The notes under the pieces are model-generated. The model saw only the letters and a program-made list of their open reading frames with translations, did no database searches and had not been told where the DNA came from. Position numbers and translations under genes: made by a program. From a virus, in the UHGV virus genome UHGV-0145247: a stretch of DNA of 25,993 nt, one strand, 5' to 3'. Positions 1-19,881 of this stretch are shown here, piece by piece (position 1 is the first letter of the stretch; every line of letters begins with the position of its first letter).

Positions 1-49
1 ACGAGATGCAGCGTAGTCTCGTGGGCTCGGAGATGTGTATAAGAGACAG
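1..49. other. Illumina Nextera library adapter (P7 tail ACGAGAT + 8-nt index GCAGCGTA + GTCTCGTGGGCTCGG + mosaic end AGATGTGTATAAGAGACAG); assembly artefact
   Basis: Exact match to the well-known Nextera read-2 transposase adapter and Tn5 mosaic end; genomic sequence starts at 50. Confidence 0.85.
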
Positions 50-54
50 GGTGA

Positions 55-876
55 TTACCTGTCCAACAGGTTCAGCATGTTCTCCGCCATCACCCAGAGC
101 GCACGGTTTAACTTAACGTCGCCATCAATTCCGTTAACTGGGCGGGTTTGGGTGCGTTTCCCCTGCGCGGTACGGCCACTTAGCCCGCCTTTCAGCAGGT
201 TTTCCTGGATGCGCTGGTAAGTGGTCCACAGGTCATCGCTCTCGTCCTGCCAGCGGCGAGGTGCAAGAATTTGCGATTCAGTCACTGGCTGGTACTCTTC
301 CCCAAAACGATATGTGAGCGCCGCTTTAGCCAGTGCATGTTGTGCGGGTGACGGGAGTTGCATGGACTGCATGGCGTCACGTTTCTCTTCCACCCGCTCA
401 AAGACGCTGAGAACCTCATAGGCCCCCTCAATCACCTTCCCGACAACGTCGCCCCTGTGTGGCACGCGGATCTCGCCAAACGACTGTCCGCAAACGAGCG
501 AATTGGTGCAGACGCTTCGGAATATCCCTGGCAGTAACTGAAAACTTGATGCGCCATCGTGCGAATTCAGAATGATGATTTCCGGTACCTGCTGACCGTT
601 TATCTGACCGGCACGACGCAGGCGCAGCATATGCTTTGTATGTTCCCGTCGGCTCTGGTCGCGCACTCGTGACTGACAGGCAAAGAATGGCTGGAACCCT
701 TCGCGTTTAAGGTTCTCCAGCAGGGTAATGGTGGGTATGTAGGTGTACTTTTCGCTTCTGGAGTCGTGCTTGTCTTCCCCGAAGACGCTGGGGACATGCT
801 GCATCAGTTCTTCGCGGGTTAAGGGACGGTCACGGCGAATCTGGTTCACCCGACCAAAACGGCTAGCTAATCGCAT
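55..876 (-). CDS. DUF932 family protein (YfjQ/YafZ-like), 273 aa
   Basis: Full ORF with RBS GAGGAA 7 nt upstream of ATG at 876; length and sequence resemble E. coli prophage YfjQ-type proteins (from memory). Confidence 0.75.
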   Translation of the reverse strand: MRLASRFGRVNQIRRDRPLTREELMQHVPSVFGEDKHDSRSEKYTYIPTITLLENLKREGFQPFFACQSRVRDQSRREHTKHMLRLRRAGQINGQQVPEIIILNSHDGASSFQLLPGIFRSVCTNSLVCGQSFGEIRVPHRGDVVGKVIEGAYEVLSVFERVEEKRDAMQSMQLPSPAQHALAKAALTYRFGEEYQPVTESQILAPRRWQDESDDLWTTYQRIQENLLKGGLSGRTAQGKRTQTRPVNGIDGDVKLNRALWVMAENMLNLLDR

Positions 877-910
877 AGTTGATTCCTCATCTGATTAATC
901 TGAAGGCATA

Positions 911-946
911 AAAGCAAAAGCCCCTGCTCCGTGAGGAGGCAGGGGC
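911..946 (-). terminator. Stem-loop (GCCCCTGC/GCAGGGGC, 8 bp) followed by TTTTGCTTTT on minus strand
   Basis: Inverted repeat 920-927 / 939-946 with T-tract on the minus strand, between small ORF and DUF932 gene. Confidence 0.4.
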
Positions 947-986
947 AGATATGTTGTTCACAGTGGGAGGGATATGGCGGACAGGA

Positions 987-1199
987 CTACAGCGTATCCA
1001 GAATCTTCAGTATCTGCGCCATCAGGGCGGTGATAAGTGCAGTGACCAGCAACGTGACCGCTTCCCGGGCTGTATCAATACTGCTGTCATCGTAGCCTGC
1101 CTGACGCAGGCGAATTTCAATAAACTGTCGGGCCTGATGTCCGCCGCACCAGGTCAGTGCCTGGCTCAGGGCCGTCACCAGCATTTTCAGAAAGGTCAT
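987..1199 (-). CDS. Small hypothetical protein (~70 aa), start uncertain
   Basis: Protein-like helical sequence from internal ATG at 1199; longer ORF-track start at 1301 would overlap the upstream gene. Confidence 0.4.
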   Translation of the reverse strand: MTFLKMLVTALSQALTWCGGHQARQFIEIRLRQAGYDDSSIDTAREAVTLLVTALITALMAQILKILDTL

Positions 1200-1279
1200 G
1201 GGGTTTGCTCCGGGCTGCCTGGCGGCAGCCCTCTGGTGGAGTGAAGATTTCTTTGAGGAAGCTGATACAGGAAAGTGGC

Positions 1280-1639
1280 TCAGTGGTAGGTGTAACGCCA
1301 TCCCCCCTTATCAGTGGTGACGACGACTTCTGAAGCAACGCAGTTATTATAAAAATTTACTTTGACGGACTCCCCGTAGCGCAAGGTGGCGGGCAGAATA
1401 GTTTCCTTATTGCTGGAATATAGGTACTTCTGGTTATCAATACGACAGTTACCCCGGTTCACATCTATCTTTTCAACTTTGATACTGTCATCCAGCGAGG
1501 TGACTACGACCGTGACATAGCGTGTTCCGGCAGGATGAACCTGATTACTGGTCTCCACTTTGATGGGCGGCGCTGGCTCTGCCAGCGCCTGTGCTGACAA
1601 TGCAAGCAGTGCGGATACCAGCATATATTTAAATTTCAT
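1280..1639 (-). CDS. Exported protein with N-terminal signal peptide (119 aa)
   Basis: N-terminus MKFKYMLVSALLALSAQALA is a classic Sec signal peptide. Confidence 0.6.
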   Translation of the reverse strand: MKFKYMLVSALLALSAQALAEPAPPIKVETSNQVHPAGTRYVTVVVTSLDDSIKVEKIDVNRGNCRIDNQKYLYSSNKETILPATLRYGESVKVNFYNNCVASEVVVTTDKGGWRYTYH

Positions 1640-1693
1640 AATCTGTTCCTTATAAAAATAATGTCATCAACAGCCGTTAAATTCAGATACAGG

Positions 1694-2158
1694 CTAGAGT
1701 GCATCTTTACCCACGCAGCCGTGTGTCCCGAATGCCGGTAGTACCTTAGCCGCACCGGCCAGCGTGAATGTGGCAGGCTTAACACCGTCTCCTGTCACTG
1801 AGACCTGTTTGCCATTACGTAACTGAGCCCAGGCCAGCGCCAGGTTATTACCGCCCACGCGACTGCCAGATTCGCTGATATCAATAAGTGCCCCACCATC
1901 GATACTGACCTGAAGGCTTTTATCTTCATCCATACTGACCTGATGTCCGCTTGCGTCAGTAAATATGATCGTGGCCGGTTGCGAGCCATAATCCTCGCAA
2001 CTCAGAGACAGTTGTGACTGACCTTTTCCTTTGATAACAAACTCTGATACACCCTGTCCCCAACCCCGGGTCCAGGTCCCCTGACTGCCAGATGCCAGCG
2101 CCATAACCGGCAGCAGACTGCCAGCCAATACCAGGATGCTGAGTGATACATTTTTCAA
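1694..2158 (-). CDS. Exported protein with N-terminal signal peptide (154 aa)
   Basis: N-terminus MKNVSLSILVLAGSLLPVMALA; Ser/Gly-rich mature part. Confidence 0.6.
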   Translation of the reverse strand: MKNVSLSILVLAGSLLPVMALASGSQGTWTRGWGQGVSEFVIKGKGQSQLSLSCEDYGSQPATIIFTDASGHQVSMDEDKSLQVSIDGGALIDISESGSRVGGNNLALAWAQLRNGKQVSVTGDGVKPATFTLAGAAKVLPAFGTHGCVGKDAL

Positions 2159-2211
2159 GACGAACTCCTTCTGTTAGTAAAACTGCGGTGCTGACGAATG
2201 AACATGCGGGT

Positions 2212-2889
2212 TCATTCCCGGATGAGCCTGCTGATGTAATGAAAATGCGGCAGGGCCTGAATAAATCGCGGGTCTTCAAAAATTCGCCGGATATGATTGT
2301 TTCTGGTGAAGCCCCCGATGGTCATAACCACATCGGTGATGGCTGAAAGGGTAAATACCTGAATCCGCTCGCCAGTTATTGCCGTCAGGTACCACTCGCC
2401 TTCCAGACAGATAAGCCGGTAAGGGGCAACGGCGGACTGATGGTGTCCGTGGTGCAGAAAATGAATACGGCGACTGCTGATGATGGCCTGGATAATGACC
2501 TGAAAACCGCCAAACAACGCCGGAGCCTGACGGGGTGGCGTATTCCAGATAATGCAGGGGGAGTCTTGGCCGCTGTCGAGCAAGACCGACAACAATTTAG
2601 GGTCAAGTGCCGGAAAGTAATGTGCCACCTGGGTTATCTGGGCAAAGCGGATAATGTCGCAGTTAGTGCGAAAGGGGCCCCGTGCATCCCGCAGGCGAAA
2701 ATTACCCCCGGAATATTCCGTGTCGATATAGCGCAGGCGTTCACGCAGGTCGCGCTGCACGGTACGCTCAGAGACGCCAAACTCCTGAGCAAGTTGCCTG
2801 ACACTGAGCGTTTCTCCCATAAAGAGGCGGCTGACCAGTATGGCGAGACGGCTTGCCAGGCGGTCATAGCGTTGTTTCTGTTCAGACAT
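2212..2889 (-). CDS. HTH + WYL-domain transcriptional regulator (YfjR-like), 226 aa
   Basis: N-terminal HTH (LSVRQLAQEFGVSERTVQRDL), literal WYL motif (GEWYLTAI) in C-terminal half; start taken at internal ATG 2889 (MSEQKQ), the ORF-track start at 3120 is an antisense extension. Confidence 0.7.
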   Translation of the reverse strand: MSEQKQRYDRLASRLAILVSRLFMGETLSVRQLAQEFGVSERTVQRDLRERLRYIDTEYSGGNFRLRDARGPFRTNCDIIRFAQITQVAHYFPALDPKLLSVLLDSGQDSPCIIWNTPPRQAPALFGGFQVIIQAIISSRRIHFLHHGHHQSAVAPYRLICLEGEWYLTAITGERIQVFTLSAITDVVMTIGGFTRNNHIRRIFEDPRFIQALPHFHYISRLIRE

Positions 2890-2948
2890 GAGGGATGCTT
2901 CCTGCGCAAATAGCAGCCCTGTCGGGCTGGTGGTTAAGTAAAAAGATG

Positions 2949-3677
2949 TTAACGGGAAAGGTGCTGCTGTCTCAGCCAGGACACGATGATGCATGCGGGT
3001 ATCGTGACCCGATAAGCCGGACCGGTGATGTCGGAAATCATCCACGCTGAACTCAGGGCGATGGCAAGAGGACCAGCCAGAACGGAAAGAGCACGTGAAG
3101 CGACCACAACAGTTCCCCAAGTGGCAATGCCGCCCAGGGAGGTGATGACACTAGCAGACAACATCGTTGCCAGCTCGAGCGCAGCCAGCGAGGAAGTCCG
3201 GATGGCGGCCTGAACGGCGATAAGAATGAGTTGTGGCGTGGGGTTTGTCAGATCCAGATGCATATTGTGGGAGAAAGCAGCCAGCTCTTCTGGTGACATC
3301 TGATCCAAGCTTTTTTCCAGAACCTTCATCAACAGAGCAAGCTCAATGGTTTCGGTAGTACTTTTCTGGTTGTAATTCACATCAAGCTTGTCACAGACAT
3401 CAACGAGAATTTCCCGATAGGTCACGCCTTGCCCCAGCCGGACCAGGCTCGCCAGGGTATTCGCGCCGTAACGCTGAAGCTCAGCGGCTATCAGTTGCCA
3501 GTAGCGGCGATGGTCTGGTGCCAGCAGACGAAACTCCGGGGTTCCGGTAAGACTCTCTGTCCAACGAGTGTCGCCGTCTCGTGGGTCAGTGGTCAGGATG
3601 GAAATCAGCAATTGCAGTTCTTCATTGCTGCATTGGCCCAGCAGATTCAAATCAGGGTCATTACGGTAGACAGCCAT
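2949..3677 (-). CDS. Hypothetical protein (242 aa) with hydrophobic Ala/Ser/Gly-rich C-terminal region
   Basis: ORF with RBS GAGGA 7 nt upstream of ATG 3677; first gene of the WYL-regulator cluster. Confidence 0.55.
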   Translation of the reverse strand: MAVYRNDPDLNLLGQCSNEELQLLISILTTDPRDGDTRWTESLTGTPEFRLLAPDHRRYWQLIAAELQRYGANTLASLVRLGQGVTYREILVDVCDKLDVNYNQKSTTETIELALLMKVLEKSLDQMSPEELAAFSHNMHLDLTNPTPQLILIAVQAAIRTSSLAALELATMLSASVITSLGGIATWGTVVVASRALSVLAGPLAIALSSAWMISDITGPAYRVTIPACIIVSWLRQQHLSR

Positions 3678-3691
3678 TATCTATCCTCAGT

Positions 3692-3714
3692 CAGTGTGAT
3701 GTGAGGTCACACTG
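3692..3714. promoter_or_regulatory. Perfect palindrome CAGTGTGA-N7-TCACACTG, candidate operator or 5'-UTR hairpin
   Basis: 8-bp perfect inverted repeat 15-37 nt upstream of the start codon at 3677. Confidence 0.35.
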
Positions 3715-4282
3715 TAAAAGGGGCTATTGCACGGATGTGTCGTCAGAAATGGTTAATATATGCTCTATGGAAAGATATACGGACAGGGTGTGGCTGGAAA
3801 AATAGGGGAGGAACCAAACAGCTATAACGATTTTTATCGTGCCTGAGTGTTATCAATATAACGATAATGGCTAGTGAGTTTGTTTTTTTTGCTGCTTTAG
3901 GGTGATTATATATTTCCCAAATATTAATGAGCTTACATTTGTTTCTTTTGCTGCGTGTTGTTTCGTAGTATTAGGTAATCGATGCCTTCCACTTTGATGG
4001 CTAACGACAATTTTAATTTTAGTACTATAGTTTATTTATGGAGAAGTGATTGAAGTATAAAAGAGAGGTCTTGCTGAGTAAGGCTTCAGGAAGGTATCCG
4101 TTTGGAACGTAATAGGAAAGGTGGCAAAGTGTATGATGATGCCACCTTTCTAATATGTTAAATCTGACCTCTTTGTGTTAACAATAGGCCGGTTTTGTCC
4201 ATTTTTCAGTTGAAAGAAAGCCGGATTTAGCTGACTTTAGCTGTCCCAGGTAAGGTGCCAGATGCTAGTACGCAACTTACCA

Positions 4283-5497
4283 TTAGAAGTGATGTGGTAT
4301 GATTAAAACCCCATGTTTGTCCAAAGGCGGCACTGTGAAAAATGAATTGTAAAATAAAATACATGACTCCTGATTGTGTAAGTCTATTTGGAAATAACGG
4401 GATACATACCGTTCCAGAATGTTTTGATAATAATCATGGTTTAATTTTTCTTTATTCCTAGCTCGTTCAATTATGTCTTCGTGCAGACTTGAAAATACCT
4501 CAATTAAGTCATCCTTATCCCCATTTAACATGGCATGAAAAGCAGCAGCAGCAAATAACTCATTTGCAGGACCTGCAGACAGCCAGTGACTGCTTTCAAT
4601 AGAATTAATGGACTCCCTCAAACGCCAGAGACCCAAGCGCATTGCCTGATCGTTTAAAAGTTTCAGTAATGGTGGATAAGCATAAATGTCCGTACCAAAC
4701 AGCCTGCGTGGTACACTCAGATCTGCAAAGGTCACATGTTTTACAGAGGCTAGCGCTTCCTGTATTTCATCCTGACCATATTGCATCGTGAGCGCCTTTA
4801 ATAACGTCGATTTTACAGGCAGGGGAGAACCTGCCGCTTTTATGCCGCTGAACGTTCCTCGGGTTTTGCTCACGGGAATAGTGTCCTTCATCATCCTGTT
4901 AATCAACGCAGGGGCAATAATGATGTTATCCGCTGTATTGGCCCCCCCTTTGGAATTCGGATATATGTGACATAACTCCAGCTCCAGCCAGGGTATCAGG
5001 CGTTTAATAACCTGCCCCTGTGAATCAATAACCCTTTGCCCATTTAGAGTATTGTAAGCTTTCTGGTAGTCTGCTTTGCGCTGGTACAACCGGATGAGAT
5101 CAGCAATGTCATCAGGGCTGGTGATACTTCCCAGCCCGAGGGGATTATTCTTTAGCTTGGACTCCACGTTGATCCAGTAAGAATGTTTTACCAGACTGAC
5201 AATGGCATCGTCATCTATGAGCCTTCTATCTTTATTACGATGCCCAATACAACAATACCGTTGATTGCGAGTACCAGACAGGCTAATACCACAGGGCGGG
5301 TACTGACACGTCAGATTCCACCTTTGCGCTCTTTTAGCTGCATTAGAAAGCTTACCCTGATAATGTACAGAACATAAGCGGAATTTACGCTCATCAGGTA
5401 ATTCACCAATTGAGAGCGTACAGTTATTTCTTTTACAAATAGCCATAATAAGACTCTTATCACAGTTAATCATGTTGCATGATAAATAAATAGCCAC
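4283..5497 (-). CDS. HNH nuclease-domain protein with Cys-rich N-terminus (404 aa)
   Basis: Cys pairs in first ~110 aa, then HNH-like motif ELELCHIYPNSKGGANTADNIIIAPALINR; AT-rich gene between AT-rich spacers; GTG start at 5497 without clear SD, alternative ATG at 5473. Confidence 0.6.
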   Translation of the reverse strand: MAIYLSCNMINCDKSLIMAICKRNNCTLSIGELPDERKFRLCSVHYQGKLSNAAKRAQRWNLTCQYPPCGISLSGTRNQRYCCIGHRNKDRRLIDDDAIVSLVKHSYWINVESKLKNNPLGLGSITSPDDIADLIRLYQRKADYQKAYNTLNGQRVIDSQGQVIKRLIPWLELELCHIYPNSKGGANTADNIIIAPALINRMMKDTIPVSKTRGTFSGIKAAGSPLPVKSTLLKALTMQYGQDEIQEALASVKHVTFADLSVPRRLFGTDIYAYPPLLKLLNDQAMRLGLWRLRESINSIESSHWLSAGPANELFAAAAFHAMLNGDKDDLIEVFSSLHEDIIERARNKEKLNHDYYQNILERYVSRYFQIDLHNQESCILFYNSFFTVPPLDKHGVLIIPHHF

Positions 5498-5664
5498 TCA
5501 TTAATCATGATCATAATTGATGGTATTTTTTAATATATCGTTAGTAATTAAGATGTTTATGTCTCAAATGAATCTGAAATATACTAGTGGTTTAATAATA
5601 AATTAATTGTTAGTGCTCTTTTTATCACGTGGCATTGCTAAGTGGGCAGCAGATAATGCTGCAT

Positions 5665-5898
5665 TTATGGTTGTTCGGCAATAGTAGTTGATGATGCCAG
5701 ATGACGTTTCAGCAACCACTCATCCAGTTCAGACTCAAGCCAGCCGACAGATTGCATGCCTAGGCGACGTTGTTTAGGGAATGTGGCGTCATATCGTGGT
5801 GACATGGGGTTAATCCAGTCGTAGATGGTAGAACGGGCTACGCCTATCTTGTTGACAACACTAGACATACGCAGGATTTTAATGTGTTGAGTGTTCAT
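5665..5898 (-). CDS. alpA: AlpA-family transcriptional regulator / excisionase-like protein (77 aa)
   Basis: Resembles E. coli AlpA (ATIYDWINPMSPRYDATFPKQRRLG...SVGWLESELDEWL). Confidence 0.8.
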   Translation of the reverse strand: MNTQHIKILRMSSVVNKIGVARSTIYDWINPMSPRYDATFPKQRRLGMQSVGWLESELDEWLLKRHLASSTTIAEQP

Positions 5899-6913: not shown

Positions 6914-8155
6914 TCATCCAACGAGCCGCATTCCTTTTATCCCCTCCTCAATGATAGTTCCGCGATCTGCAGCCATCACGAAGTCAGCCCACCATTGCAT
7001 CATAGGTCGCCGCTGTTCCAGATAATCGCTGCGATTGTAAGCTCGTCGTACCTCATTTTTGTCCACATGAGCAAGTGCGGCTTCAATGACATCAGGTGGA
7101 AAACCTTGCTCATTGAGTGCTGTGCTGGCGATAGAACGCAGGCCGTGAGAAACGAGTACGCCTCCTAAGCCAGCACGCTTAAGTGCGGCATTAACTGTTT
7201 GGCTGTTCATTGGCTGGGTTGGTTTGATGCGACTGGGAAAGATAAACTCTCGGCCACCGCTGAGGGACTTCATCACTTCCAGAATTGAGATAGCCTCATC
7301 TGATAGTGGAACCGTATGGTCTCGGTTCATCTTCATTCGAGCTGCTGGAATTTTCCATTCGTTAGCATCAAAATCGATCTCATCCCATCGTGCCTCAGCG
7401 GCTTCGGCAGGGCGGGTAATGGTGAGAAGCTGCCACATGAACAAGCACCGCGTTGACATACTGATACTTGCCGTACGCATAGTCTGCATTAGCTGCGGAA
7501 GTTGATCCGGGCGGATGCTTGGCATGTTTTTCTTTTGCGGTTTCTCAAATGCTTTTCCGATATTTACACTGGGAACTGCATCAATCAGGCCTGTGTTCTG
7601 CGCATAAATCATGACTTCGTTAATACGCTGACAAAGGCGGCGAACAGTCTCTAATGCACCTCTGGCCTGAACCGGCTGAACAGCTTTAACTAGAGTATGA
7701 GCCTTAATCTCAGTGACACTAATATCACCGATTGCTGGGAAAACATCTCTCTCAAGCGAGCGCCAGATATCGTCGGCATAGTCCTCTGTTACGCTGGCTT
7801 TCTTCACATTCCACCAACGCTCGGCAACTAACAGGAAAGTGTTGGTTTTAGCCTCTTGAGAATTTCTTACCTGTTCTTTCTGATGTTCCTGAGGATCAAT
7901 GTCTTTCGCCAACAAAACTCGAGATTCAGCTCTGAGTTTACGCGCATCAGAAAGGGAGACAGCAGGGTAGGCACCGAAGCTCTGTTTGGTTCGCTGTTTT
8001 GTCAGCGGTCGATAGTAACGGAACTGCCAGAGCTTACTACCACTGGACTTGATTAATAGAGTAAGCCCGTCACCATCATACAGCTGGTAATCGGCATCTT
8101 TAGGTTTGGCGGCTTTGATTTCCGTATCGGTTAACGGCTTGGTTTTTCTTGCCAT
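6914..8155 (-). CDS. intA: Tyrosine recombinase, P4-type integrase (IntA-like, 413 aa)
   Basis: N-terminus MARKTKPLTDTEIKAAKPKDADYQLYDGDGL typical of P4-family integrases; RBS GGAG 8 nt upstream of ATG 8155. Confidence 0.9.
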   Translation of the reverse strand: MARKTKPLTDTEIKAAKPKDADYQLYDGDGLTLLIKSSGSKLWQFRYYRPLTKQRTKQSFGAYPAVSLSDARKLRAESRVLLAKDIDPQEHQKEQVRNSQEAKTNTFLLVAERWWNVKKASVTEDYADDIWRSLERDVFPAIGDISVTEIKAHTLVKAVQPVQARGALETVRRLCQRINEVMIYAQNTGLIDAVPSVNIGKAFEKPQKKNMPSIRPDQLPQLMQTMRTASISMSTRCLFMWQLLTITRPAEAAEARWDEIDFDANEWKIPAARMKMNRDHTVPLSDEAISILEVMKSLSGGREFIFPSRIKPTQPMNSQTVNAALKRAGLGGVLVSHGLRSIASTALNEQGFPPDVIEAALAHVDKNEVRRAYNRSDYLEQRRPMMQWWADFVMAADRGTIIEEGIKGMRLVG

Positions 8156-8165
8156 GGGGAATCTC

Positions 8166-8200
8166 CATGCGTTTAGGCCCAACGAAAACAATAGAGCTTT
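8166..8200. other. Perfect 13-bp stem hairpin (GGCCCAACGAAAA / TTTTCGTTGGGCC, 9-nt loop) just upstream of integrase start
   Basis: Inverted repeat read directly from sequence. Confidence 0.5.
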
Positions 8201-8276
8201 TCGTTGGGCCTATCAATGGGCCTAAAAGGTTCGGATTTAATTAGTTCTCTTCGGACTTCGCGGGACAAATTCAAGG

Positions 8277-8310
8277 CACAAAAAAGCCCGCAGGGCTTGC
8301 GCCGTGCGGG
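8277..8310 (-). terminator. Rho-independent terminator on minus strand, downstream of the ssrA 3' end
   Basis: GCCCGCA / TGCGGGC stem (8285-8291, 8304-8310) followed on minus strand by T6. Confidence 0.5.
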
Positions 8311-8358
8311 CTCTTAGGACTTCATCGGATGACTCTGGTAATCACCGATGGAGAATTT

Positions 8359-8394
8359 TGGTGGAGCTGGCGGGAGTTGAACCCGCGCCCGAAA
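8359..8394 (-). other. ssrA: 3'-terminal fragment of tmRNA gene ssrA (att core shared by the two elements)
   Basis: Minus strand reads ...CGGACGCGGGTTCAACTCCCGCCAGCTCCACCA, matching the 3' end of E. coli tmRNA with one mismatch; similarity stops after ~36 nt. Confidence 0.8.
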
Positions 8395-8451
8395 ATTTAT
8401 AACCTCATGATAAACAGTGATAAAAAAATTTAGCGTTTTGCTGCGGATCCT

Positions 8452-9642
8452 TTACGGCTCCTTTGAGGTTCCACCGCTGACCAGCTTGGGTCGTTTTTCA
8501 GTGTTGCCGTCATACTCCTTCAGATAGCGTCCATAATGCCTGAACAACATTTCTGGCCCTTTATGTCCCATCTGTGATGCCAGCCAGAACAGGTTAGCGC
8601 CTCGACTTATATGTCGGGTCGCGAACGTATGCCTGGTCTGGTATGGATTGCGGTACCTGATCCCAGCTTTACGTAAAGTTGGCACCCAGGCTTTCTTTCT
8701 TATCGCATCGGCACCCGCCCATGGTTTTTCTGTCTTAGGATCCTCAAAGATCGTTGCATCTTTCATAAAGGTGAAAGGCTTCTGAGAAGTCAGGGCATAC
8801 AAGGCTTCTTCGGTCAACTCAACTTTACGTGTTCCAGCTTTAGTTTTCGTGCCCTTAATTACCCCCACTACGCTGGCATTTTGCACATGCGCTGTTTTGC
8901 CGATAAAGTCGATATCGCGCCAACGGAGGGCGCAGAGTTCAGAACTACGTAGCCCGGTTTCAATTGCAAAGCGGAATATGTTTTCCCACTGCTTATTACC
9001 CGCAGCATGCAAAAGCGCTTCAACCTCGGCCGGTGAAAGCGGATCAACAATATAATCACTTTCATCCTCGGTTTTACTGCTCTGGTAGCGCGAGGCTGTC
9101 ACCAGTGAAACAGGGTTAATCTGCAATACACCATCAGTCACAGCTTCATCCAGTGCTGAGCGTAGGAATGAAAGTTGGTTCCTAATCGTCTTTAATGTCG
9201 TTTTCTGACTCTGGATCCATGTTTTTAAAGCAGCAGGTGTTAATTCGCTGGCAGGAAAAACGTGAAGTGATGCCAGAGCATTTAAACATTTCTTATATCC
9301 GCCGATTGTTGAAGGAGATAATTTTCTCGTTTCACAAATTACAAGATATTCATCGAGATAATTTTTTACCGTTTTTCCTGTTGAAGCATTACCAAATATT
9401 TTAAGTCGTGCCGAACGGGGAAAGTGTTCACCATAATTGAATGTACCACGCTCAATTTTATTGTGAATTTCGCCGAGTGTTCGCTCGGCGTATTTAAGGT
9501 TTTTGCTATTAACTTCAAGGTTTGATAAAGGTTCCCGGCATTTCACCCCCTTATAGGTAAAGGTAATATTGATAGTTTCCCCAGTACTATGTTTCCTGAT
9601 CGTTACGCCGCGCGGGAGTTTAGGCGATTTTGTCGAGCCCAT
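8452..9642 (-). CDS. int: Phage integrase, tyrosine recombinase (396 aa)
   Basis: C-terminal catalytic region (RHTFATRHISRGANLFWLASQMGHKGPEMLFRHYGRY); next to att core. Confidence 0.9.
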   Translation of the reverse strand: MGSTKSPKLPRGVTIRKHSTGETINITFTYKGVKCREPLSNLEVNSKNLKYAERTLGEIHNKIERGTFNYGEHFPRSARLKIFGNASTGKTVKNYLDEYLVICETRKLSPSTIGGYKKCLNALASLHVFPASELTPAALKTWIQSQKTTLKTIRNQLSFLRSALDEAVTDGVLQINPVSLVTASRYQSSKTEDESDYIVDPLSPAEVEALLHAAGNKQWENIFRFAIETGLRSSELCALRWRDIDFIGKTAHVQNASVVGVIKGTKTKAGTRKVELTEEALYALTSQKPFTFMKDATIFEDPKTEKPWAGADAIRKKAWVPTLRKAGIRYRNPYQTRHTFATRHISRGANLFWLASQMGHKGPEMLFRHYGRYLKEYDGNTEKRPKLVSGGTSKEP

Positions 9643-9821
9643 TTTGCAACCTCACTAAGATCTATCCATCTTTCCTTAACGCCTTCGACCTTTAGCACCT
9701 GTACCCCTTCACGCCATACGCCGCGTTGGATGCGCTTATTTATGGCATCAGGGGTTTCGCCTGTCTCTTTGCAATAAGTTGAGATGGGAACACAATCGAG
9801 GCTCAGCATAGATTTCTCCAT
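9603..9821 (-). CDS. xis: Excisionase-like protein (72 aa)
   Basis: Small basic ORF overlapping the int start, position typical for xis. Confidence 0.55.
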   Translation of the reverse strand: MEKSMLSLDCVPISTYCKETGETPDAINKRIQRGVWREGVQVLKVEGVKERWIDLSEVAKWARQNRLNSRAA

Positions 9822-9889
9822 TACCCCGGCTGCACCCGGGGGAAATTATTAAATAACTGCGCTTTTTGGCGCTGGTGGTGCGACCGCGC

Positions 9890-10060
9890 TCATAGCGGTG
9901 AATCATCCCCCAGCTTCGCCTTTAAATCGCCAGTGACAAACCAGGCTGGAATTTCTCCGGCATTATTAGAGGATCGCCCCTGCGGTGAGGTGAATGACCC
10001 ACGCACGGGAATTAGTTTGATGAGGCTGACACATCGGCCAATTTCTTCAATGGTGCGCAT
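9890..10060 (-). CDS. Small ORF (56 aa), translationally coupled to upstream gene
   Basis: ATG overlaps the stop of the 347-aa gene (TGATG), RBS GGAGG upstream; below ORF-track cutoff. Confidence 0.3.
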   Translation of the reverse strand: MRTIEEIGRCVSLIKLIPVRGSFTSPQGRSSNNAGEIPAWFVTGDLKAKLGDDSPL

Positions 10061-11103
10061 CACTTCACCTCCTGCGGGGCGGCTGCGAAGTGATTAATGG
10101 CCTTATCCCAGATTTCTTTGATGGTGGTCCAGTCAATCGGCATGGTGCTCGTCCAGGTTCCCTCGCCGCTGCAGTCGTCGCACCCTTCACCAAAACACTC
10201 ATGGCATGTCAGCGTATATTCAAGATTGAATTCCCCGAGAAGCGCTGCTTTTGCACCGTTCTCAGCGGTTAGCCTCATCGGCACCATCACGTACCCCTCT
10301 GGAATTACCGTGGAGTTGCTAGCATTTGGATGCAGAGCGCGAATCCCTTCGGCTAATTCTTCCAGGGTGGATGAATATCCGCGCTGGGCATCATTGCCGA
10401 ACTCGAACGCTCCGGTATCAGGATTAGACCATCCATGCTCGCTGTCGTATGCCTCACGCTGCTTATCTATCCATTTGGCGGCGGCTTCAATGCCATCGCG
10501 ATAGAAAGTGACTACTGGCGCTGGCTGCTCTTTGATGTGCAAGCGAGGTTCACCGTCTTTCGGCTCAGGCCATTCGCGCTGTTTGTTCACTGCCAGCTTT
10601 TCGATCATCGCCTGGGTAATCTGTTCGTCGGTGATACCGGCACGACGCTGGGCATCCCACATCAGGAATTGCATATCAGCCCACTCCGACAGGTCATCTG
10701 GTTCCGCTGCGGCCTCCATAGCCTCTTTTGCCAGATGCTTCAGTGGTCCAACAGGGCCGACATTACCGAATGTTGCCTGTGACCACTCTGAGTGCTCGCG
10801 GCGTACCTGCTCTCGGTCCTTTGCTGGTTGCGCTGGCGGATAATTTGCCAGCATCCAACTAATGACGTAGTCGTCCTTGAACCGCTCAACCGGAAATCCT
10901 TCATTCCAGTCACGGAAGTGATAGATAACTTTTGCCAGCTCAGGTTGAAGCGCCACCGGCTCGTTGTCCATTGCGGCCAGCGCCATGCGAGACAGCTCCT
11001 CAGCCTCTTCAGCTGGCAGCATTACGTTGCTTCCGGCACCGTAGGTTTCACGCCATGATTTAATTTTTTCCAGGCGCTCTCTGGTTATGGTCGATTTGGT
11101 CAT
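10060..11103 (-). CDS. Phage early protein with DUF550-like domain (Ead/Ea22-like), 347 aa
   Basis: Motif HLAKEAMEAAAEPDDLSEWADMQFLMWDAQRRAGITDEQI resembles the DUF550 family seen in lambdoid early regions (from memory). Confidence 0.5.
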   Translation of the reverse strand: MTKSTITRERLEKIKSWRETYGAGSNVMLPAEEAEELSRMALAAMDNEPVALQPELAKVIYHFRDWNEGFPVERFKDDYVISWMLANYPPAQPAKDREQVRREHSEWSQATFGNVGPVGPLKHLAKEAMEAAAEPDDLSEWADMQFLMWDAQRRAGITDEQITQAMIEKLAVNKQREWPEPKDGEPRLHIKEQPAPVVTFYRDGIEAAAKWIDKQREAYDSEHGWSNPDTGAFEFGNDAQRGYSSTLEELAEGIRALHPNASNSTVIPEGYVMVPMRLTAENGAKAALLGEFNLEYTLTCHECFGEGCDDCSGEGTWTSTMPIDWTTIKEIWDKAINHFAAAPQEVK

Positions 11104-11393
11104 GGTTGGCTCCAGTTATCCTCGATAGCCACGCCCAAGCGGTGTAGCCAGTCTGCAAGTTTGAGCATCGATTCGCGGTCGCTAAGTCCTTCCGGAAAGT
11201 CTTTCAGTTCGATAGTCGGTATAAAGCGACCGAAGCTATCGCGCTCTACCGTTAGAAATTGCTCCAGAACAGTCTGCTGAATGCGGCTGTTATGCCGCAC
11301 CAGGTAAACATATTTGGAGTCTTTGGCTTTAGGCTCGTAGAGATACTCGGTCAGTATCATCTGGCTTCTGGTGCGATCGGTTCCTCTCCACAT
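11100..11393 (-). CDS. Hypothetical phage protein (~97 aa), abuts IS110 insertion
   Basis: ORF with ATGA overlap to downstream gene; ATG at 11393 preferred over GTG at 11396. Confidence 0.45.
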   Translation of the reverse strand: MWRGTDRTRSQMILTEYLYEPKAKDSKYVYLVRHNSRIQQTVLEQFLTVERDSFGRFIPTIELKDFPEGLSDRESMLKLADWLHRLGVAIEDNWSQP

Positions 11394-11396
11394 CAC

Positions 11397-12550
<1,154 letters not shown>

Positions 12551-12561
12551 TGAAGTGGTGT

Positions 12562-13065
12562 TCAAGACAGTTGCTCCACCTTGATGCCAGCGGCGGTCAG
12601 CGCCGCTAGAAATTCGTCAACTTCATCACGCATGTATATTCCAAGCTTCTCTCCGCCGACTGTGATATGCCCCGGCCGCATCGGTTTCACGGTGACGGTG
12701 CGGGACTCCAGCTCGGCGATGCGCTCTTTTGCCACCAATAATTCAGCAGCAATTTCACGCCAACTTTCATAACTGGCCTCAAGCTTGTCCCAATCAGGGT
12801 TGAAGTTGGCAAGCTCAGACAACTGGCCTTTCAGAAACGCATTACTCTTCTGCGCCTTCTCCAGCGCCTCTGCCATCTCAGCGCCAGCCGCTTTCCATGC
12901 CTCCCACATTCCCTCAAGCTCTGAGTCGTCATCGTCAACCTTATAGCCTTCCCCATCGCGCCAGTGCGACCAGCCAAAACGCGGCGGATTGCCGTTATGC
13001 TGGGTGCGCTCCCACCACGCTTCGAATTTCTCTCTCTGCGCCAGTTCGGTGATATCAGTTGTCAT
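12562..13065 (-). CDS. Hypothetical phage protein (167 aa)
   Basis: Acidic, coiled-coil-like ORF; start overlaps methyltransferase stop (ATGA). Confidence 0.55.
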   Translation of the reverse strand: MTTDITELAQREKFEAWWERTQHNGNPPRFGWSHWRDGEGYKVDDDDSELEGMWEAWKAAGAEMAEALEKAQKSNAFLKGQLSELANFNPDWDKLEASYESWREIAAELLVAKERIAELESRTVTVKPMRPGHITVGGEKLGIYMRDEVDEFLAALTAAGIKVEQLS

Positions 13066-13790
13066 GCTGCACGCTCCCGTTTAATCACCATGCGCTCGAA
13101 TGCGGTGCAAAATATTTCCGGATCTTTTTCTACGCCTATAAACCGGCGCCCTGATTGCTGACACGCAACGCCAGCAGTCCCGCTACCCATAGTGAAGTCC
13201 AGTACTGTATCGCCATGATTGCTGTAGGTTTCAATCAGGTATTTCACAAGCGCCAAAGGCTTTTGCGTTGAATGAAGAGCTTGTTTTTGCTTATCACTAG
13301 AGAATTTCTGCACATCTCGCGGATAGCGGCTTGTTGAATCGTAAGTGACTTTTTTCAACGCCTCGCCATAGACATCAGTATTCGGCGTGCCTCTTGTTGC
13401 AGTTTTTCTGGCGTGCCCATGCGTCATCTGTGGGTTGTATGTCGGCTGCTTTCTGTAAAAAACCTCAATATTTTCATGTGCACGAAGAGGTTGTTTTTTC
13501 GCATTCAGGAAACCTGTAGCGTGTGGCTTCTCCCAAATCCACTCCGACCGCCAGTCCCGCAGATTGCTGTTAATCAGCACGCTGGTGAACGGCTGAGCGG
13601 AAAACAGCACAATAGCGGCGCTGGGCTTAGCGATGCGGTAGAGTTGCTCCCACATCAGAGCCAAGTCGAGAACAGAATCCCAGCGGCACTGAGTGGTACC
13701 GTATGGGATATCAGCACATACCAGGTCAACGGTACCGCTGGCGATTTTCGGGAATACGTCGAAGCAATCTGCGTTGTGAAGGTAGATCAT
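13062..13790 (-). CDS. DNA methyltransferase, N6-adenine/N4-cytosine type (242 aa)
   Basis: Motif IV-like DIPYGT near N-terminus and AdoMet-binding DFTMGSGTAGVA near C-terminus. Confidence 0.8.
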   Translation of the reverse strand: MIYLHNADCFDVFPKIASGTVDLVCADIPYGTTQCRWDSVLDLALMWEQLYRIAKPSAAIVLFSAQPFTSVLINSNLRDWRSEWIWEKPHATGFLNAKKQPLRAHENIEVFYRKQPTYNPQMTHGHARKTATRGTPNTDVYGEALKKVTYDSTSRYPRDVQKFSSDKQKQALHSTQKPLALVKYLIETYSNHGDTVLDFTMGSGTAGVACQQSGRRFIGVEKDPEIFCTAFERMVIKRERAA

Positions 13791-14380
13791 TTGTCGGCCC
13801 CCTCGCGCAGCTGCTGGGCGTAGTAGTCACGCAGCGCACAGGCCGCAACAGAAATAAGCGTGTCAAAATCACAAACAACCGTATCGCCGTTGTGCTGTTC
13901 TGAATTTGCGATCACCTTAAGAGCGCTCACCAGCGGGGCTGCAGCATCAGCCTTAATCCCGGCTACGATGCGATCGGTGGCGGGGGTTGCCACCGAGTCA
14001 ACCAACCGGTAATTGCATGTTTGATAGGTGTGCTGGCTATCGGAGGTATGCAGCCCTTGAGCATCGAAGCCTTGAGCCTGTTGAATCACGACACCCCATG
14101 ACACGCGCTGAACATCTTCGCTCCAGCCGTCGTCTGCGTCCTCACGGTAAGCGTCAATCTCTTCCTGCGCTGTATCAATAGCGTTCTGCTTGTCTTTGAA
14201 ATAATCAAAACCGTATTCAGGCGAGTATGCGAAGTAAGTTACGCCAGCCTTTAGCCCCACATTCTCCGCAGCCACATCCAGATATGCTTTCGCCAGCGCC
14301 ATAACCTTTGTCTCTTTGATCGACAGCTCGCCCGCAGACTCAAGCGACTGAATGAGCTCGTTTACTGTTTCGATGTTCAT
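13787..14380 (-). CDS. Hypothetical phage protein (197 aa)
   Basis: Start taken at internal ATG 14380 (MNIETV), which overlaps the stop of the upstream small ORF. Confidence 0.5.
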   Translation of the reverse strand: MNIETVNELIQSLESAGELSIKETKVMALAKAYLDVAAENVGLKAGVTYFAYSPEYGFDYFKDKQNAIDTAQEEIDAYREDADDGWSEDVQRVSWGVVIQQAQGFDAQGLHTSDSQHTYQTCNYRLVDSVATPATDRIVAGIKADAAAPLVSALKVIANSEQHNGDTVVCDFDTLISVAACALRDYYAQQLREGADK

Positions 14381-14511
14381 GCCGTCACCCATTCGATCAT
14401 CATGCATACGCCCCAGGTCACAGCGACTACTGCAACCCACCCGATAACACTGACCAGTGCAGCAAACCAGAGAAGGGCGCGCCGGCTGTAATTTTCAGGT
14501 TCAAAGTTCAT
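14377..14511 (-). CDS. Small hydrophobic protein (44 aa), likely membrane peptide
   Basis: MNFEPENYSRRALLWFAALVSVIGWVAVVAVTWGVCMMIEWVTA; ATGA overlaps at both ends; below ORF-track cutoff. Confidence 0.35.
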   Translation of the reverse strand: MNFEPENYSRRALLWFAALVSVIGWVAVVAVTWGVCMMIEWVTA

Positions 14512-15293
14512 TGCGCCTCCCCAATTACCCAGCGCAGAGCCTCGGCATATTCGCCGCTGGCATCTTCAAGGGCTTTAGTGATTTCCTTACGCGATTTGAT
14601 GCGCGGCTTTGCCTCACCGAGAACCTGACGCTGCCGACGGGATTTTTCATGGCCTTTGGTACCAGCTGTCGCCAGCTCGATTTCTGCCACTTTTGCCCGC
14701 TGCTCTTCAGGTGGGAGCGCGCCAAGCTGACGCGCCTGGGTAACGGTAACTGTGCCAGACTCGACCGCTTCACGAACAGCCTGGGTAGCATCGAGTAGTG
14801 ACAGCGTTGCACGGACAGTCTGAACGCTACAGCCAAACAACACCGCAAGGTCGTCCTCGTCATGACCACGATCCAGCGCGTCTGACATTTTCTTAGCTCG
14901 ACCTAATGGCGTATCAGGTCGGCGGATTTCGTTTTCGCTGACCATATATTTGGCCATTTGGTTTGCAGACCCACGCTTAACGACTCCAGGAACAAGCAGC
15001 GGTGTTTTGCCTTCTTTCAGCAGGAGCTTATTGGCTTCCAGCGTATGTTTAACGCGCTGACGACCGACAACCACACAGGTGAGCCCCTTTTCAGGGTCTT
15101 TCCAGACAATAATCGGCTCAAGAACACCCAGCTCCTTGATATTCAGCACCATCCCTTCATCGATCGGCAGATTGACTCGCTCATCGTAAAGCGGGTGGGC
15201 CTTGTCAGTGACAATATGCAGATTTTCCGGCTCGAACATCAGAACGTTTGTCTTGCCGCTGGCGCCATAAGCATCGATCGAGTTTTTAGCCAT
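14508..15293 (-). CDS. ParB-like nuclease-domain protein (261 aa)
   Basis: ParB N-terminal-domain-like segment LGVLEPIIVWKDPEKGLTCVVVGRQRVKHTLEA; RBS GAGGAA. Confidence 0.65.
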   Translation of the reverse strand: MAKNSIDAYGASGKTNVLMFEPENLHIVTDKAHPLYDERVNLPIDEGMVLNIKELGVLEPIIVWKDPEKGLTCVVVGRQRVKHTLEANKLLLKEGKTPLLVPGVVKRGSANQMAKYMVSENEIRRPDTPLGRAKKMSDALDRGHDEDDLAVLFGCSVQTVRATLSLLDATQAVREAVESGTVTVTQARQLGALPPEEQRAKVAEIELATAGTKGHEKSRRQRQVLGEAKPRIKSRKEITKALEDASGEYAEALRWVIGEAQ

Positions 15294-15486
15294 TTCTGTT
15301 TTCCTCGCTCAGGTTCGCTATCATCGCGGCCATAGCGGTGTTCTGGTCCATTGCCTCTGTAAGGGCGACAAAGGTCACATCCAGCCTTGACGCTATGTCT
15401 TGCATTAATTGTGCTGCTGCTGGTGGTAGGTCAGGTGCTGCAGCGTATGCTGCAGCAACCAATTCTTTCACTTTCACGTGTGCCAT
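15286..15486 (-). CDS. Hypothetical small protein (66 aa)
   Basis: Ala-rich ORF with RBS, overlaps start of ParB-like gene. Confidence 0.4.
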   Translation of the reverse strand: MAHVKVKELVAAAYAAAPDLPPAAAQLMQDIASRLDVTFVALTEAMDQNTAMAAMIANLSEENRNG

Positions 15487-15517
15487 TAGCGCCGCTCCAT
15501 CAGTTGGTTAAAGCGGT

Positions 15518-16012
15518 TCATGAACAGGCCATAAGATTGACCAGGGCGGCGGGATTAATCACAAATTGGTCGGTGGGAATAATACCGTCGAGCATCGGCC
15601 AGTGGGTGCCGTCGTCGATCTCAAAGTCGCGACGTTCGCTGGCGAGCATCACAAGGTCGGCATACTTTACGGTCGGGTGCTGCTCAGCTGGCAGGCAGAA
15701 TTTTTGACGGATAGCAGCATCAACCCGATCCTCAATGGCGCGGTAGTCCGGGAGCAGGCGCTTAAGCGGTGCTGGAATATCCTGCAAATAAGCCTCTGCG
15801 GCATCGTGCAGTAGTGCTTCAAGAGCAAACTCCTGTGGTACCAGGTGGCTGGTTAACACGCTGTGCTGACCGACGCTGTAGAACTCCGGAAGATGGCCAG
15901 CAAAGCGGCAAATATTCGAGAGCGCGTTAGCGATATCTTCGATCTCAATGGCATCCAACTGGATATCGAGATAGTTAAAGTGCTTGCCTGTGAACGTTTG
16001 AATAAAGCTCAT
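15518..16012 (-). CDS. HD-domain phosphohydrolase (YfdR-like), 164 aa
   Basis: HD motif context ALEALLHDAAEAY; start at internal ATG 16012 with RBS GGAGAA. Confidence 0.7.
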   Translation of the reverse strand: MSFIQTFTGKHFNYLDIQLDAIEIEDIANALSNICRFAGHLPEFYSVGQHSVLTSHLVPQEFALEALLHDAAEAYLQDIPAPLKRLLPDYRAIEDRVDAAIRQKFCLPAEQHPTVKYADLVMLASERRDFEIDDGTHWPMLDGIIPTDQFVINPAALVNLMACS

Positions 16013-16108
16013 CGTATTTCTCCATTTAATTGCGCTCTGCACAGCGCTGATTTTTAGGTGTAGGAATCCCTCGCCGGGTGGCGATTAATTTCAGGATTAC
16101 GCTTTAAT

Positions 16109-16132
16109 AAATCCCCGCAACGACGGGGATTT
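16109..16132 (-). other. Stem-loop AAATCCCCG-CAACGA-CGGGGATTT between YfdQ-like and HD genes
   Basis: Perfect 9-bp inverted repeat; weak T-tract on minus strand. Confidence 0.3.
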
Positions 16133-16144
16133 AATGGAGAGCAA

Positions 16145-16972
16145 TCAGGCTTTGAAGTTGCCGATAAAGGTTTCTACCGGCTTGCCGTCGAACTTGCCAA
16201 CCAGAAGATCACGGAACTCATTAGCGATCGCTTCTTCCTGGGCCTCCAGTTGGACAATTCGCAGAACGAACACCGGGTCGCTACTTTTCAGCAGACTGTT
16301 GCGCAGACTGAAACGACGTTCGCCCAGGCCTTCATAGGGTACACACTTAAACTCAAACGCGACCGGCATAACATCTTTACTGCTGGCTTCGATACTTTGC
16401 ATCAGCGATTTTTTGCCGCTGAAATCACCGTCTTCATGATCGGCGGCATTAGTTTGCTGGATAGTGACACGGCGAACCGCCTGCGCTGCCTGTGCAATTT
16501 TCATTGTCTGTCCGTCAGCATCGAACGCAGTGAGATAGTCGCTCCAGTCTTCGAGCCATTCGGCGATTTGCTTCTGATTAAGGTGATCGCCGTTGATCGC
16601 CAGTAACGCGCGGAAGGGCGCTGTTTTCTTTAGCTTGATCGAGGCGACGTTATCAGCATGACCAGGGTTGTCCAACGTGCCGATATTGAAGATAGAACGA
16701 GCCAGCATGTTATCGGCATCAATAAAGCAACGTGCTTTTTCTTCTTCCAGGGCATAAGCGACAGAATAGCGAACGAAATCATCAATGCTAGTCGTGTCCA
16801 TGGCACCGCGGAAACGGAAACGCTCAAGAGCAAAACGCTCCAGGCTTTCAATGCTGGTATTCTGCGGTAGCAGGGCGGTCGGACAGGCCAGGCCGGGGAT
16901 ATCGTTCAGGTGATAACCGGAAAGCACCAGATCTTTAACCTGCTGAAAAGTACCGCTGTCTAACTGAGACAT
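16145..16972 (-). CDS. YfdQ-like (DUF2303-type) phage protein, 275 aa
   Basis: Size and gene order (123-aa / 275-aa / HD hydrolase) resemble the yfdP-yfdQ-yfdR module of an E. coli prophage (from memory); RBS AAGGAA. Confidence 0.55.
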   Translation of the reverse strand: MSQLDSGTFQQVKDLVLSGYHLNDIPGLACPTALLPQNTSIESLERFALERFRFRGAMDTTSIDDFVRYSVAYALEEEKARCFIDADNMLARSIFNIGTLDNPGHADNVASIKLKKTAPFRALLAINGDHLNQKQIAEWLEDWSDYLTAFDADGQTMKIAQAAQAVRRVTIQQTNAADHEDGDFSGKKSLMQSIEASSKDVMPVAFEFKCVPYEGLGERRFSLRNSLLKSSDPVFVLRIVQLEAQEEAIANEFRDLLVGKFDGKPVETFIGNFKA

Positions 16973-17028
16973 AAAAATTCCTTATTTACTGATTAGCGAA
17001 GTGGTATCAGTGAATTTGTACGTGCGGT

Positions 17029-17400
17029 TCACTGAGCCGCTTTAAGCTTTCCGTCCACCGCGCCGGTGATACCGAAGAGTTGCCCCTGATCCTCCTGCAG
17101 GATAGTGAGCTTGCCGCCTTTGTTAACCCACATTGGTGTTTCGGTGGTGTCCTCTTCCGACGCTTTGCCGCGGGGAGTAGGAGTGCTGTAGTTCAGCTTG
17201 TGCTTAATCTTGACGCGCTTCTCTTCAACAGAGTTGCCCATACGCTCAAAATCAAAGGTGAGGACAACCTTGCCTTTGTTGCCATTGTTCAGAACGCCGA
17301 GCGCGGTGGTATTAAGAGCCGCCGCAATCTTGTTCATGAATACGCCGGCGTCCAGTTCACCGAGGAAATCGGGCACTACTGTCATGCGATCATTACTCAT
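17029..17400 (-). CDS. Hypothetical phage protein (123 aa)
   Basis: Start at internal ATG 17400 (MSNDRMTVV) with RBS GAGGG. Confidence 0.5.
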   Translation of the reverse strand: MSNDRMTVVPDFLGELDAGVFMNKIAAALNTTALGVLNNGNKGKVVLTFDFERMGNSVEEKRVKIKHKLNYSTPTPRGKASEEDTTETPMWVNKGGKLTILQEDQGQLFGITGAVDGKLKAAQ

Positions 17401-18497: not shown

Positions 18498-18731
18498 TTA
18501 AATTGCCTTAGCCGGCAGGCCGAGGACGCTACGCATTTCTTTTTGAGTGCGAATGGCTATGGCGATCGTTAGGTCAATATCTCCGCGGTAAGCTGTGCCA
18601 TCTTCACAAATAATAAGAGTGATTGATTTTTTGCCTTTCTTGCTTACCTCGAAGCGATGCGCTTTACGGACTACATGACAGCCGTTTGCTAATGCGTCCT
18701 TGATAAGGTTTTCAATGCCTTTGCTCGCCAT
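18498..18731 (-). CDS. Hypothetical protein (77 aa), first leftward gene beyond cI
   Basis: RBS AGGAA 7 nt upstream of ATG 18731. Confidence 0.5.
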   Translation of the reverse strand: MASKGIENLIKDALANGCHVVRKAHRFEVSKKGKKSITLIICEDGTAYRGDIDLTIAIAIRTQKEMRSVLGLPAKAI

Positions 18732-18865
18732 GTTCTGTTCCTATTTGGTTTATCTGTTAGCGAATCATCCCGGTCTTCATATGCCCCGGGCGGCTACTTC
18801 GTGGGCGTCCTGCCTCTTCGCTGTTGATAGATGAAAATCTAACTTAACTTAGTTTTGTCGTCAAG

Positions 18866-18896
18866 AAAAAACACCAAACTTTTCTTAGCTTGGTGT
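18866..18896 (-). terminator. Rho-independent terminator downstream of cI
   Basis: ACACCAA / TTGGTGT stem followed on minus strand by T6 (18866-18871). Confidence 0.45.
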
Positions 18897-18916
18897 CGAA
18901 GGGAGATTAGCTTAGA

Positions 18917-19853: not shown

Positions 19854-19881
19854 TAGGAACCACAGAGATAAGGGGTAAGCC

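Follow-up and report, generated by a model that had tools for sequence, protein, structure and literature searches.

Near one end of the virus genome UHGV-0145247 a homologue of the phage-defence gene jukA is followed by the gene for a YfjR-family regulator with a helix-turn-helix (HTH) and a WYL domain. The whole stretch of 25,993 nucleotides (nt), here called the window, was analysed. Its minus-strand interval 2212-3800 would comprise the control region and the first two genes of a jukA-plus-regulator operon on an integrative island. On balance we favour, with modest confidence, a reading in which the regulator controls this operon through GACA-N5-TGTC boxes upstream of jukA, and in which a 23-bp palindrome close to the jukA start acts after transcription, as a stem-loop in the leader RNA. 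An earlier note, made from the sequence alone, had proposed that palindrome as the regulator's operator. The elements concerned are as follows.

3782..3794, minus strand: box 1, GCCACACCCTGTC, one mismatch to GACA-N5-TGTC, 105-117 nt upstream of the jukA ATG
3755..3760, minus strand: -10-like A/T-rich hexamer TATATT, a conserved A/T-rich block in the alignment
3729..3741, minus strand: box 2, degenerate, GACACATCCGTGC, from alignments
3692..3714, minus strand: palindrome and predicted stem-loop, 8-bp stem, 7-nt loop, -10.4 kcal/mol (repeat search, folding)
3684..3688, minus strand: Shine-Dalgarno (SD) sequence GAGGA of jukA, read from the sequence and conserved in the alignment
2949..3677, minus strand: jukA/yaaW homologue, 242 amino acids (aa) (PADLOC JukA, Pfam)
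2212..2889, minus strand: YfjR-family HTH-WYL regulator, 225 aa (Pfam, PADLOC WYL, identity to K-12 YfjR, AlphaFold, Foldseek)

The comparisons below draw on 23 genomic and 80 metagenomic loci with JukA relatives and on 42 IMG/VR loci with YfjR relatives. The CP4-57 region of Escherichia coli K-12, E. coli AW1.7 and one Klebsiella plasmid were also read. Group A denotes the window's own lineage of jukA-WYL loci.

The JukA homologue and its WYL neighbour

JukA, formerly YaaW, senses infection in the jumbo phage killer (Juk) defence system and is made up of DUF3944 and a Cbp3-like domain (bioRxiv 10.1101/2022.09.17.508391). Judged by its sequence, the 242-aa protein is a JukA/YaaW homologue: it gives a full-length match to JukA in PADLOC (PDLC04113, E=6.8e-64, residues 3-240), and in Pfam it matches DUF3944 (E=5e-9) and the Cbp3-like chaperone domain Ubiq_cyt_C_chap (E=5e-5). 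By homology it is most likely a sensor of phage infection of the JukA/YaaW type. The gene directly after it encodes the WYL regulator, not JukB, and PADLOC gave no JukB match among the five proteins downstream of jukA or for the upstream 404-aa protein. Genes with WYL domains rank among the most frequent defence-associated neighbours of jukA, and some jukA genes are paired with transcription regulators; in these JukA alone conferred immunity (bioRxiv 10.1101/2022.09.17.508391). The link to phage defence that the earlier note drew from the regulator type is stronger than it claimed, because the first gene of the cluster is a JukA homologue.

The mechanically called open reading frame of the regulator extends over 2212-3120 (302 aa, TTG start). 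The actual start was set at the ATG at 2889, since dozens of homologues are 225 aa long. The protein contains a WYL domain in Pfam (PF13280, E=8.8e-8, residues 129-188), preceded by HTH_11/HTH_DeoR at residues 14-50, and it matches WYL in PADLOC (E=1.3e-20). It is 44% identical to K-12 YfjR over 219 of its 225 residues (E=3e-58), and the family alignment shows that it retains a literal W166-Y-L motif. These results, with the fold matches given next, bear out its earlier description as a YfjR-like HTH-WYL regulator. It was also rightly placed as the second gene of a co-directional minus-strand cluster, in which all genes are as described.

An AlphaFold model (predicted local distance difference test score 82.8) has a winged HTH, linker helices, a WYL barrel and some 30 C-terminal residues. 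Helices span residues 30-37 and 41-51, the wing spans 57-66, and residues 194-225 after the barrel form three short helices. Sequence searches of the PDB with the JukA homologue and the regulator gave nothing useful; only a fold search connected the regulator with BrxR and CapW. With Foldseek against the PDB, the best matches were BrxR, CapW, DriD and PafBC, among them 7QFZ, 7TB5 and 9C5G at E about 1e-6. In CapW the WCX domain occupies residues 193-297 (PMC11662680). No C-terminal WCX domain of ~100 residues was found in the regulator, in which only residues 194-225 follow the WYL barrel. On this model it is a member of the WYL-regulator superfamily that lacks the ~100-residue WCX domain. Across all gene contexts in the family alignment the N-terminal HTH is its best conserved part, which fits a common DNA target.

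Boxes upstream of YfjR-family genes

Members of the regulator family, whatever their gene context, are accompanied by the palindromic box GACA-N5-TGTC (full form GGACA-N5-TGTCC, consensus GACACACCCTGTC), which has a set place ahead of the operon. An exact copy lies within 250 nt upstream in 64 of 73 non-identical YfjR-family regions. The density is 3.8 per kb upstream and 0.034 per kb elsewhere in the same loci, a 112-fold enrichment. Each of the nine remaining regions, the window among them, has a copy with one mismatch, as checked by eye. Nearly all group-A relatives have an exact box at -117, -118 or -122, and loci of the AW1.7 type have one at -62 and a second in the gap between jukA and the WYL gene. 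Two boxes, GGACACCACCTGTCC and TGTCCATACCCTGTCC, lie in the yfjQ-yfjR spacer upstream of K-12 yfjR, and two are likewise found upstream of a GTPase-WYL pair on the Klebsiella plasmid and of some 30 further loci of the yfjP/yfjQ/yfjR type. The box is absent upstream of ~50 distant jukA genes that have no WYL partner.

In the window, box 1 and box 2 bracket the -10-like hexamer, a putative promoter element at which relatives have CAAAAAT or CAATAAT. Box 2 is homologous to the second box of Pectobacterium, GACACATCCTGTC, and to TGTCCATACCCTGTCC of K-12 yfjR. Other one-mismatch copies in the window are scattered inside genes. Box 1 is the best candidate operator for the WYL regulator. We infer that this protein binds the boxes from their co-occurrence with the family and from the conserved HTH. 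It would bind those at 3782-3794 and 3729-3741 as a dimer and, because they bracket the -10-like element, would regulate the operon that encodes it. On the model of CapW and BrxR it is probably a repressor, relieved when the WYL domain binds a nucleic-acid ligand such as single-stranded DNA. Alternatively it may be an activator like DriD or PafBC, with box 1 centred near -40 beside a poor -35. In genomic SELEX (systematic evolution of ligands by exponential enrichment), its own operon is the sole listed target of YfjR (PMC8249747).

Three further features of the upstream region were noted. A sigma-70 match at 3705..3676 was dismissed, as it overlaps the hairpin and the start codon. A conserved TTCAGATATATATCA-like block lies ~230-260 nt upstream of jukA (window ~3903-3935, minus strand; 5620-5650 in the related locus L026). 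Every group-A relative has it, as does the region upstream of K-12 yfjP, and it might represent another promoter or the edge of a module; between this block and box 1 the sequence varies and contains lineage-specific insertions. The only exact GACA-N5-TGTC in the window, GACACGACGTGTC at 21439-21451, lies in the neighbouring prophage, ~90 nt upstream of a replication gene at 21537, and is probably due to chance (about 0.4 expected per 26 kb).

The predicted leader hairpin

The perfect inverted repeat reported earlier, CAGTGTGA TGTGAGG TCACACTG, is present at 3692-3714, with arms complementary at 8 of 8 positions and a spacer of 7 nt. Read along the minus (coding) strand, it is followed after 3 nt by the SD sequence and after 15 nt by the jukA ATG (3677-3675). 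By itself it proves nothing, since repeats of this size are not rare in the window: there are 19 perfect 8-bp inverted repeats with loops of 3-12 nt, at ~13 distinct sites, compared with 4.4 +/- 2.8 for Markov shuffles. Several of the 19 fall in other intergenic gaps of the same cluster. An expectation of 0.01 for the palindrome applies to the exact pattern, picked after the fact. What raises it above chance is the comparison of group-A leaders, since 27 of 28 distinct ones have a predicted hairpin at this position.

Folded sequence by sequence, these leaders gave energies between -4 and -14 kcal/mol and z scores averaging -2.2; the window hairpin has a z of -3.1. The hairpin is conserved as a structure and not as a sequence. 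Paired changes convert A-U to G-C at the loop-closing pair (5 vs 8 variants), G-C to A-U in loci L016 and L023, and C-G to U-A in L029. In Pectobacterium (CAGUAAUCG/CGAUUAUUG) and Morganella the stem sequence is wholly replaced and pairing is kept. The arms of L013, CAGTAATCG/CGATTATTG, are unrelated to the window stem. None of 500 column shuffles reached the observed paired fraction, and in slid controls pairing fell from 81% to 32-50%. The hairpin is specific to the group-A lineage: neither yfjR-only loci (z +0.55, average energy -1.8 kcal/mol) nor AW1.7-type jukA-WYL loci (z +0.73) have it in their leaders.

Conserved pairing so close to a ribosome-binding site is consistent with a stem-loop in the transcript. 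Most likely the 23-bp palindrome is part of the jukA mRNA and folds into a stem-loop in its 5' leader, 3 nt ahead of the ribosome-binding site, where it would tune mRNA stability or the start of translation and not bind the regulator.

Several observations weigh against this two-part reading of boxes and stem-loop. As to the boxes, box 1 of the window is mismatched in its left half and box 2 is degenerate. A consensus scan found no canonical sigma-70 promoter for jukA and no convincing -35, and ChIP-exo (chromatin immunoprecipitation with exonuclease digestion) gave no peaks for K-12 YfjR (PMC8464067). As to the hairpin, RNAalifold applied to 30 leaders returned no consensus structure, probably through misalignment of the most distant leaders; per-sequence folding was used in its place. 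Statistical support for covariation is modest and comes from related sequences. Wobble pairs favour neither strand (5 G.U in the sense strand vs 8 A.C, 5 of them at the closing pair), so that an RNA role is not separated from a role at the DNA level. The predicted pairing of the SD sequence, 0.83, is not significantly higher than the 0.71 of composition-matched shuffles. Lastly, the size of the palindrome and its place downstream of the -10-like element resemble the proven operators of BrxR, which are inverted repeats (arms of 10-11 bp, spacer of 5 bp) in leader DNA immediately after the promoter (PMC9122601).

It is rather unlikely, though well short of far-fetched, that the hairpin is functionless, whether it arose neutrally from a conserved leader sequence or was left over when jukA became attached to an older yfjR-type leader. 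The abundance of 8-bp inverted repeats in the window and the empty RNAalifold consensus would agree with this. Most relatives are close, and shared ancestry could explain the conservation; moreover, the window leader is homologous to the hairpin-less yfjR leader (CCCC..TTTAAAGTAATCACATCATTTTCAGTCAG). Against it, pairing survives double changes, and in the most distant members total replacement of the stem, and the shuffles and slid controls cited above do not reproduce it.

The proposal of the earlier note, that the palindrome is an operator of the WYL regulator, now appears distinctly unlikely; on this reading the regulator would bind it as a dimer and block transcription into jukA. A perfect inverted repeat (8+7+8) at the start of an operon does suggest an operator, as does the likeness to BrxR sites, and symmetric changes in both arms are also expected of a dimer site. 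The palindrome is unlikely to serve as the regulator's operator, however, because its arms vary while the HTH is fixed and because most of the family lacks it. The arms diverge completely in L013 and Morganella, and the family alignment shows that the recognition helix barely differs across loci with replaced stems (L013 has ...SERTIQRDLRQRL in the HTH, the window SERTVQRDLRERL). None of the other YfjR-family leaders examined, whose HTH is conserved, has a counterpart of the palindrome, and it is a different palindromic box that tracks the family. The position is also awkward for an operator, 3 nt from the SD sequence and about 40-60 nt downstream of the -10-like element.

Binding of another protein, a CRP-like host factor or an island factor such as AlpA, is very improbable: the arms do hold a CRP half-site (core TGTGA-N7-TCACA) and an AlpA homologue is encoded at 5898..5665, but the CRP consensus has a spacing of N6 and the palindrome one of N7, the arms of relatives become TGTGG/CCACA, TATGG/CCATA or unrelated, and many relatives have the same leader with no AlpA nearby. 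The CRP-site reading was rejected on the N7 spacing and on half-sites that are not conserved in relatives.

Other structures in the region were also considered. A terminator or attenuator was rejected for want of a U-tract: the stem is followed by ACUGAGGAUAG, and the terminator scan called nothing at the palindrome. A longer structure, pairing CCUU with the SD sequence and AUAGCC with the start-codon region, was left unproven, with moderate pair counts and SD pairing similar to that of shuffles. An Rfam 15 scan of 3500-4400 gave only chance-level matches (E>=0.25), far below gathering scores. The segment 3863-3872, ~190 nt upstream, has perfect 10-nt complementarity (GATAATGGCT) to 3672-3681 in the jukA start region, and in a longer transcript it might pair there with the start codon; the segment belongs to an insertion common only to L011 and, partly, L004, and the complementarity is probably due to chance (about 0.2 expected). 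Two 8-bp GC-rich hairpins occur further along the cluster, one at 2196-2217 (GAATGAAC-N6-GTTCATTC), spanning the regulator stop codon, and one at 1212-1231 (GGGCTGCC-N4-GGCAGCCC), preceding the gene of the small protein. Intergenic hairpins appear to be a general feature of this operon.

A more elaborate scheme, which is speculative and unlikely, would see here a two-layer gate on a single-protein anti-jumbo-phage sensor that a mobile island carries. A WCX-less WYL regulator sensing a nucleic-acid signal would act at a box-controlled promoter, and a lineage-specific leader hairpin with a C/U-rich tract would limit JukA translation or stabilise the mRNA; the same box would be the target of K-12 YfjR.

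Gene neighbourhood and known systems

The surrounding features are listed here in descending order of coordinates.

8191..6914, minus strand: island integrase
5898..5665, minus strand: AlpA homologue (Pfam)
5497..4283, minus strand: 404-aa protein, without Pfam match
Between the 404-aa gene and jukA: AT-rich spacer of 600 bp
1694..2158, minus strand: 154-aa protein, TTG start, signal-peptide-like N-terminus (translation)
1280..1639, minus strand: 119-aa protein, signal-peptide-like N-terminus (translation, conserved synteny)
987..1199, minus strand: 70-aa small hydrophobic protein, conserved in relatives
938-921, minus strand: intrinsic terminator, GC-rich stem followed by TTTTGCTTTT, the whole element covering 920..946 (terminator scan and inverted-repeat scan)
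55..876, minus strand: DUF932 protein, YfjQ-like, 273 aa (Pfam E=1.1e-48)

From jukA onwards the order on the minus strand, from open reading frames and Pfam, is the 242-aa protein, the regulator, the 154-aa, 119-aa and 70-aa proteins and DUF932, an order retained in related loci. The 154-aa protein is ~30% identical to the K-12 YfjT region, with tblastn matches at the yfjT position of yfjR-type loci; neither it nor the 119-aa protein has a Pfam match. The DUF932 protein is ~80% identical to the K-12 YfjQ class, and its gene was the sole match in an E. coli genome search, at 74-78% identity, from which it follows that the window does not come from E. coli. The terminator, which is the only intrinsic one within 1-4300 and sits between DUF932 and the remaining genes, closes the transcription unit that runs from jukA to the small protein. 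DUF932, being downstream of it, is probably a transcription unit of its own.

Enterobacterales keep the order jukA then WYL gene, and in most cases the same small genes and DUF932 come next. Behind the jukA-WYL pair of the AW1.7-type variant lie a gene for DUF262 and a type I restriction-modification system. In E. coli AW1.7 itself (L024, NZ_CP073624.1, 6838-14232) the pair is diverged, with 48% and 38% identity, and lies directly upstream of the DUF262 gene and a complete type I system; both its jukA and its WYL gene have GGACA-N5-TGTCC boxes ahead of them. Distant jukA genes (~40% identity) have no WYL partner. Two loci, L027 (OKLY01000951.1, a metagenome) and L107 (IMGVR_UViG_3300011754_000012, IMG/VR), encode a JukA and a regulator 100% identical to those of the window and have its mutated box 1 too; the same element thus occurs in public metagenomes.

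The 404-aa protein (4283-5497) had no Pfam, NCBIfam or meaningful PADLOC match. Inspection by eye suggests an N-terminus rich in Cys and a stretch resembling HNH (H...N...N), and in several relatives it adjoins AlpA, at 68-100% identity. Directly downstream of its gene lies an 11-bp perfect inverted repeat at 4116-4150 (GAAAGGTGGCA-N13-TGCCACCTTTC), stronger than the palindrome at 3692-3714, which may be the terminator of that gene, though it has no clear T-tract. Tandem mobile elements occupy 6914-25993: the island integrase (6914-8191) is directly followed by a second integrase (8452-9642) and the early region of a lambdoid prophage, with a MazG-like pyrophosphohydrolase, DNA methylases, a ParB-like protein, DUF2303, CII, a replication protein and, at 18917-19543, a CI-type S24 repressor. 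No tRNA gene was found in the window. Bases 1-49 (...ACGAGAT-GCAGCGTA-GTCTCGTGGGCTCGGAGATGTGTATAAGAGACAG) are presumably an Illumina Nextera i7 adapter, which would make this contig end a library artefact. Genomic sequence begins at ~50, 5 nt ahead of the DUF932 stop codon.

Both the JukA-WYL neighbourhood and the YfjR family were known before. The new points are the JukA identity, a family-wide box as candidate operator for the orphan regulator YfjR of K-12, and a redirected footprint target. We would describe the locus as a phage-defence gene of the JukA type that has a regulator of its own, and not as an anonymous WYL cluster. A footprint confined to 3680-3720 would probably be negative and would miss the better candidate at 3782-3794. 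The literature on YfjR yielded no binding motif for the K-12 protein, for which GGACA-N5-TGTCC is a concrete, cheaply testable operator prediction. If true, the proposed control would show how a WYL regulator without a WCX domain governs a defence gene.

With the Juk system the window shares the full-length JukA match, the DUF3944 plus Cbp3-like make-up and the WYL gene neighbourhood. It differs in that the partner is a short YfjR-type HTH-WYL protein, with no JukB found, and in that the operon lies on an integrase/AlpA island with YfjT-like and DUF932 genes. BrxR and CapW have in common with the window regulator an N-terminal winged HTH, a central WYL domain, a neighbouring defence gene and palindromic sites, here candidates, in their own promoter region. 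They are about 270-300 aa long, whereas the window regulator has 225 aa and no WCX domain, and sequence identity to them is 14-18%.

A further close likeness is to K-12 YfjR (b2634), an uncharacterised regulator of the cryptic prophage CP4-57. The two proteins share 44% identity and a layout of HTH, linker, WYL domain and short tail. Their loci have overlapping neighbours (YfjT-like and DUF932/YfjQ-like), and the leader DNA is homologous, with GGACA-N5-TGTCC boxes. In K-12, however, this leader directly precedes the regulator gene, whereas in the window jukA intervenes and the leader has gained a stable hairpin.

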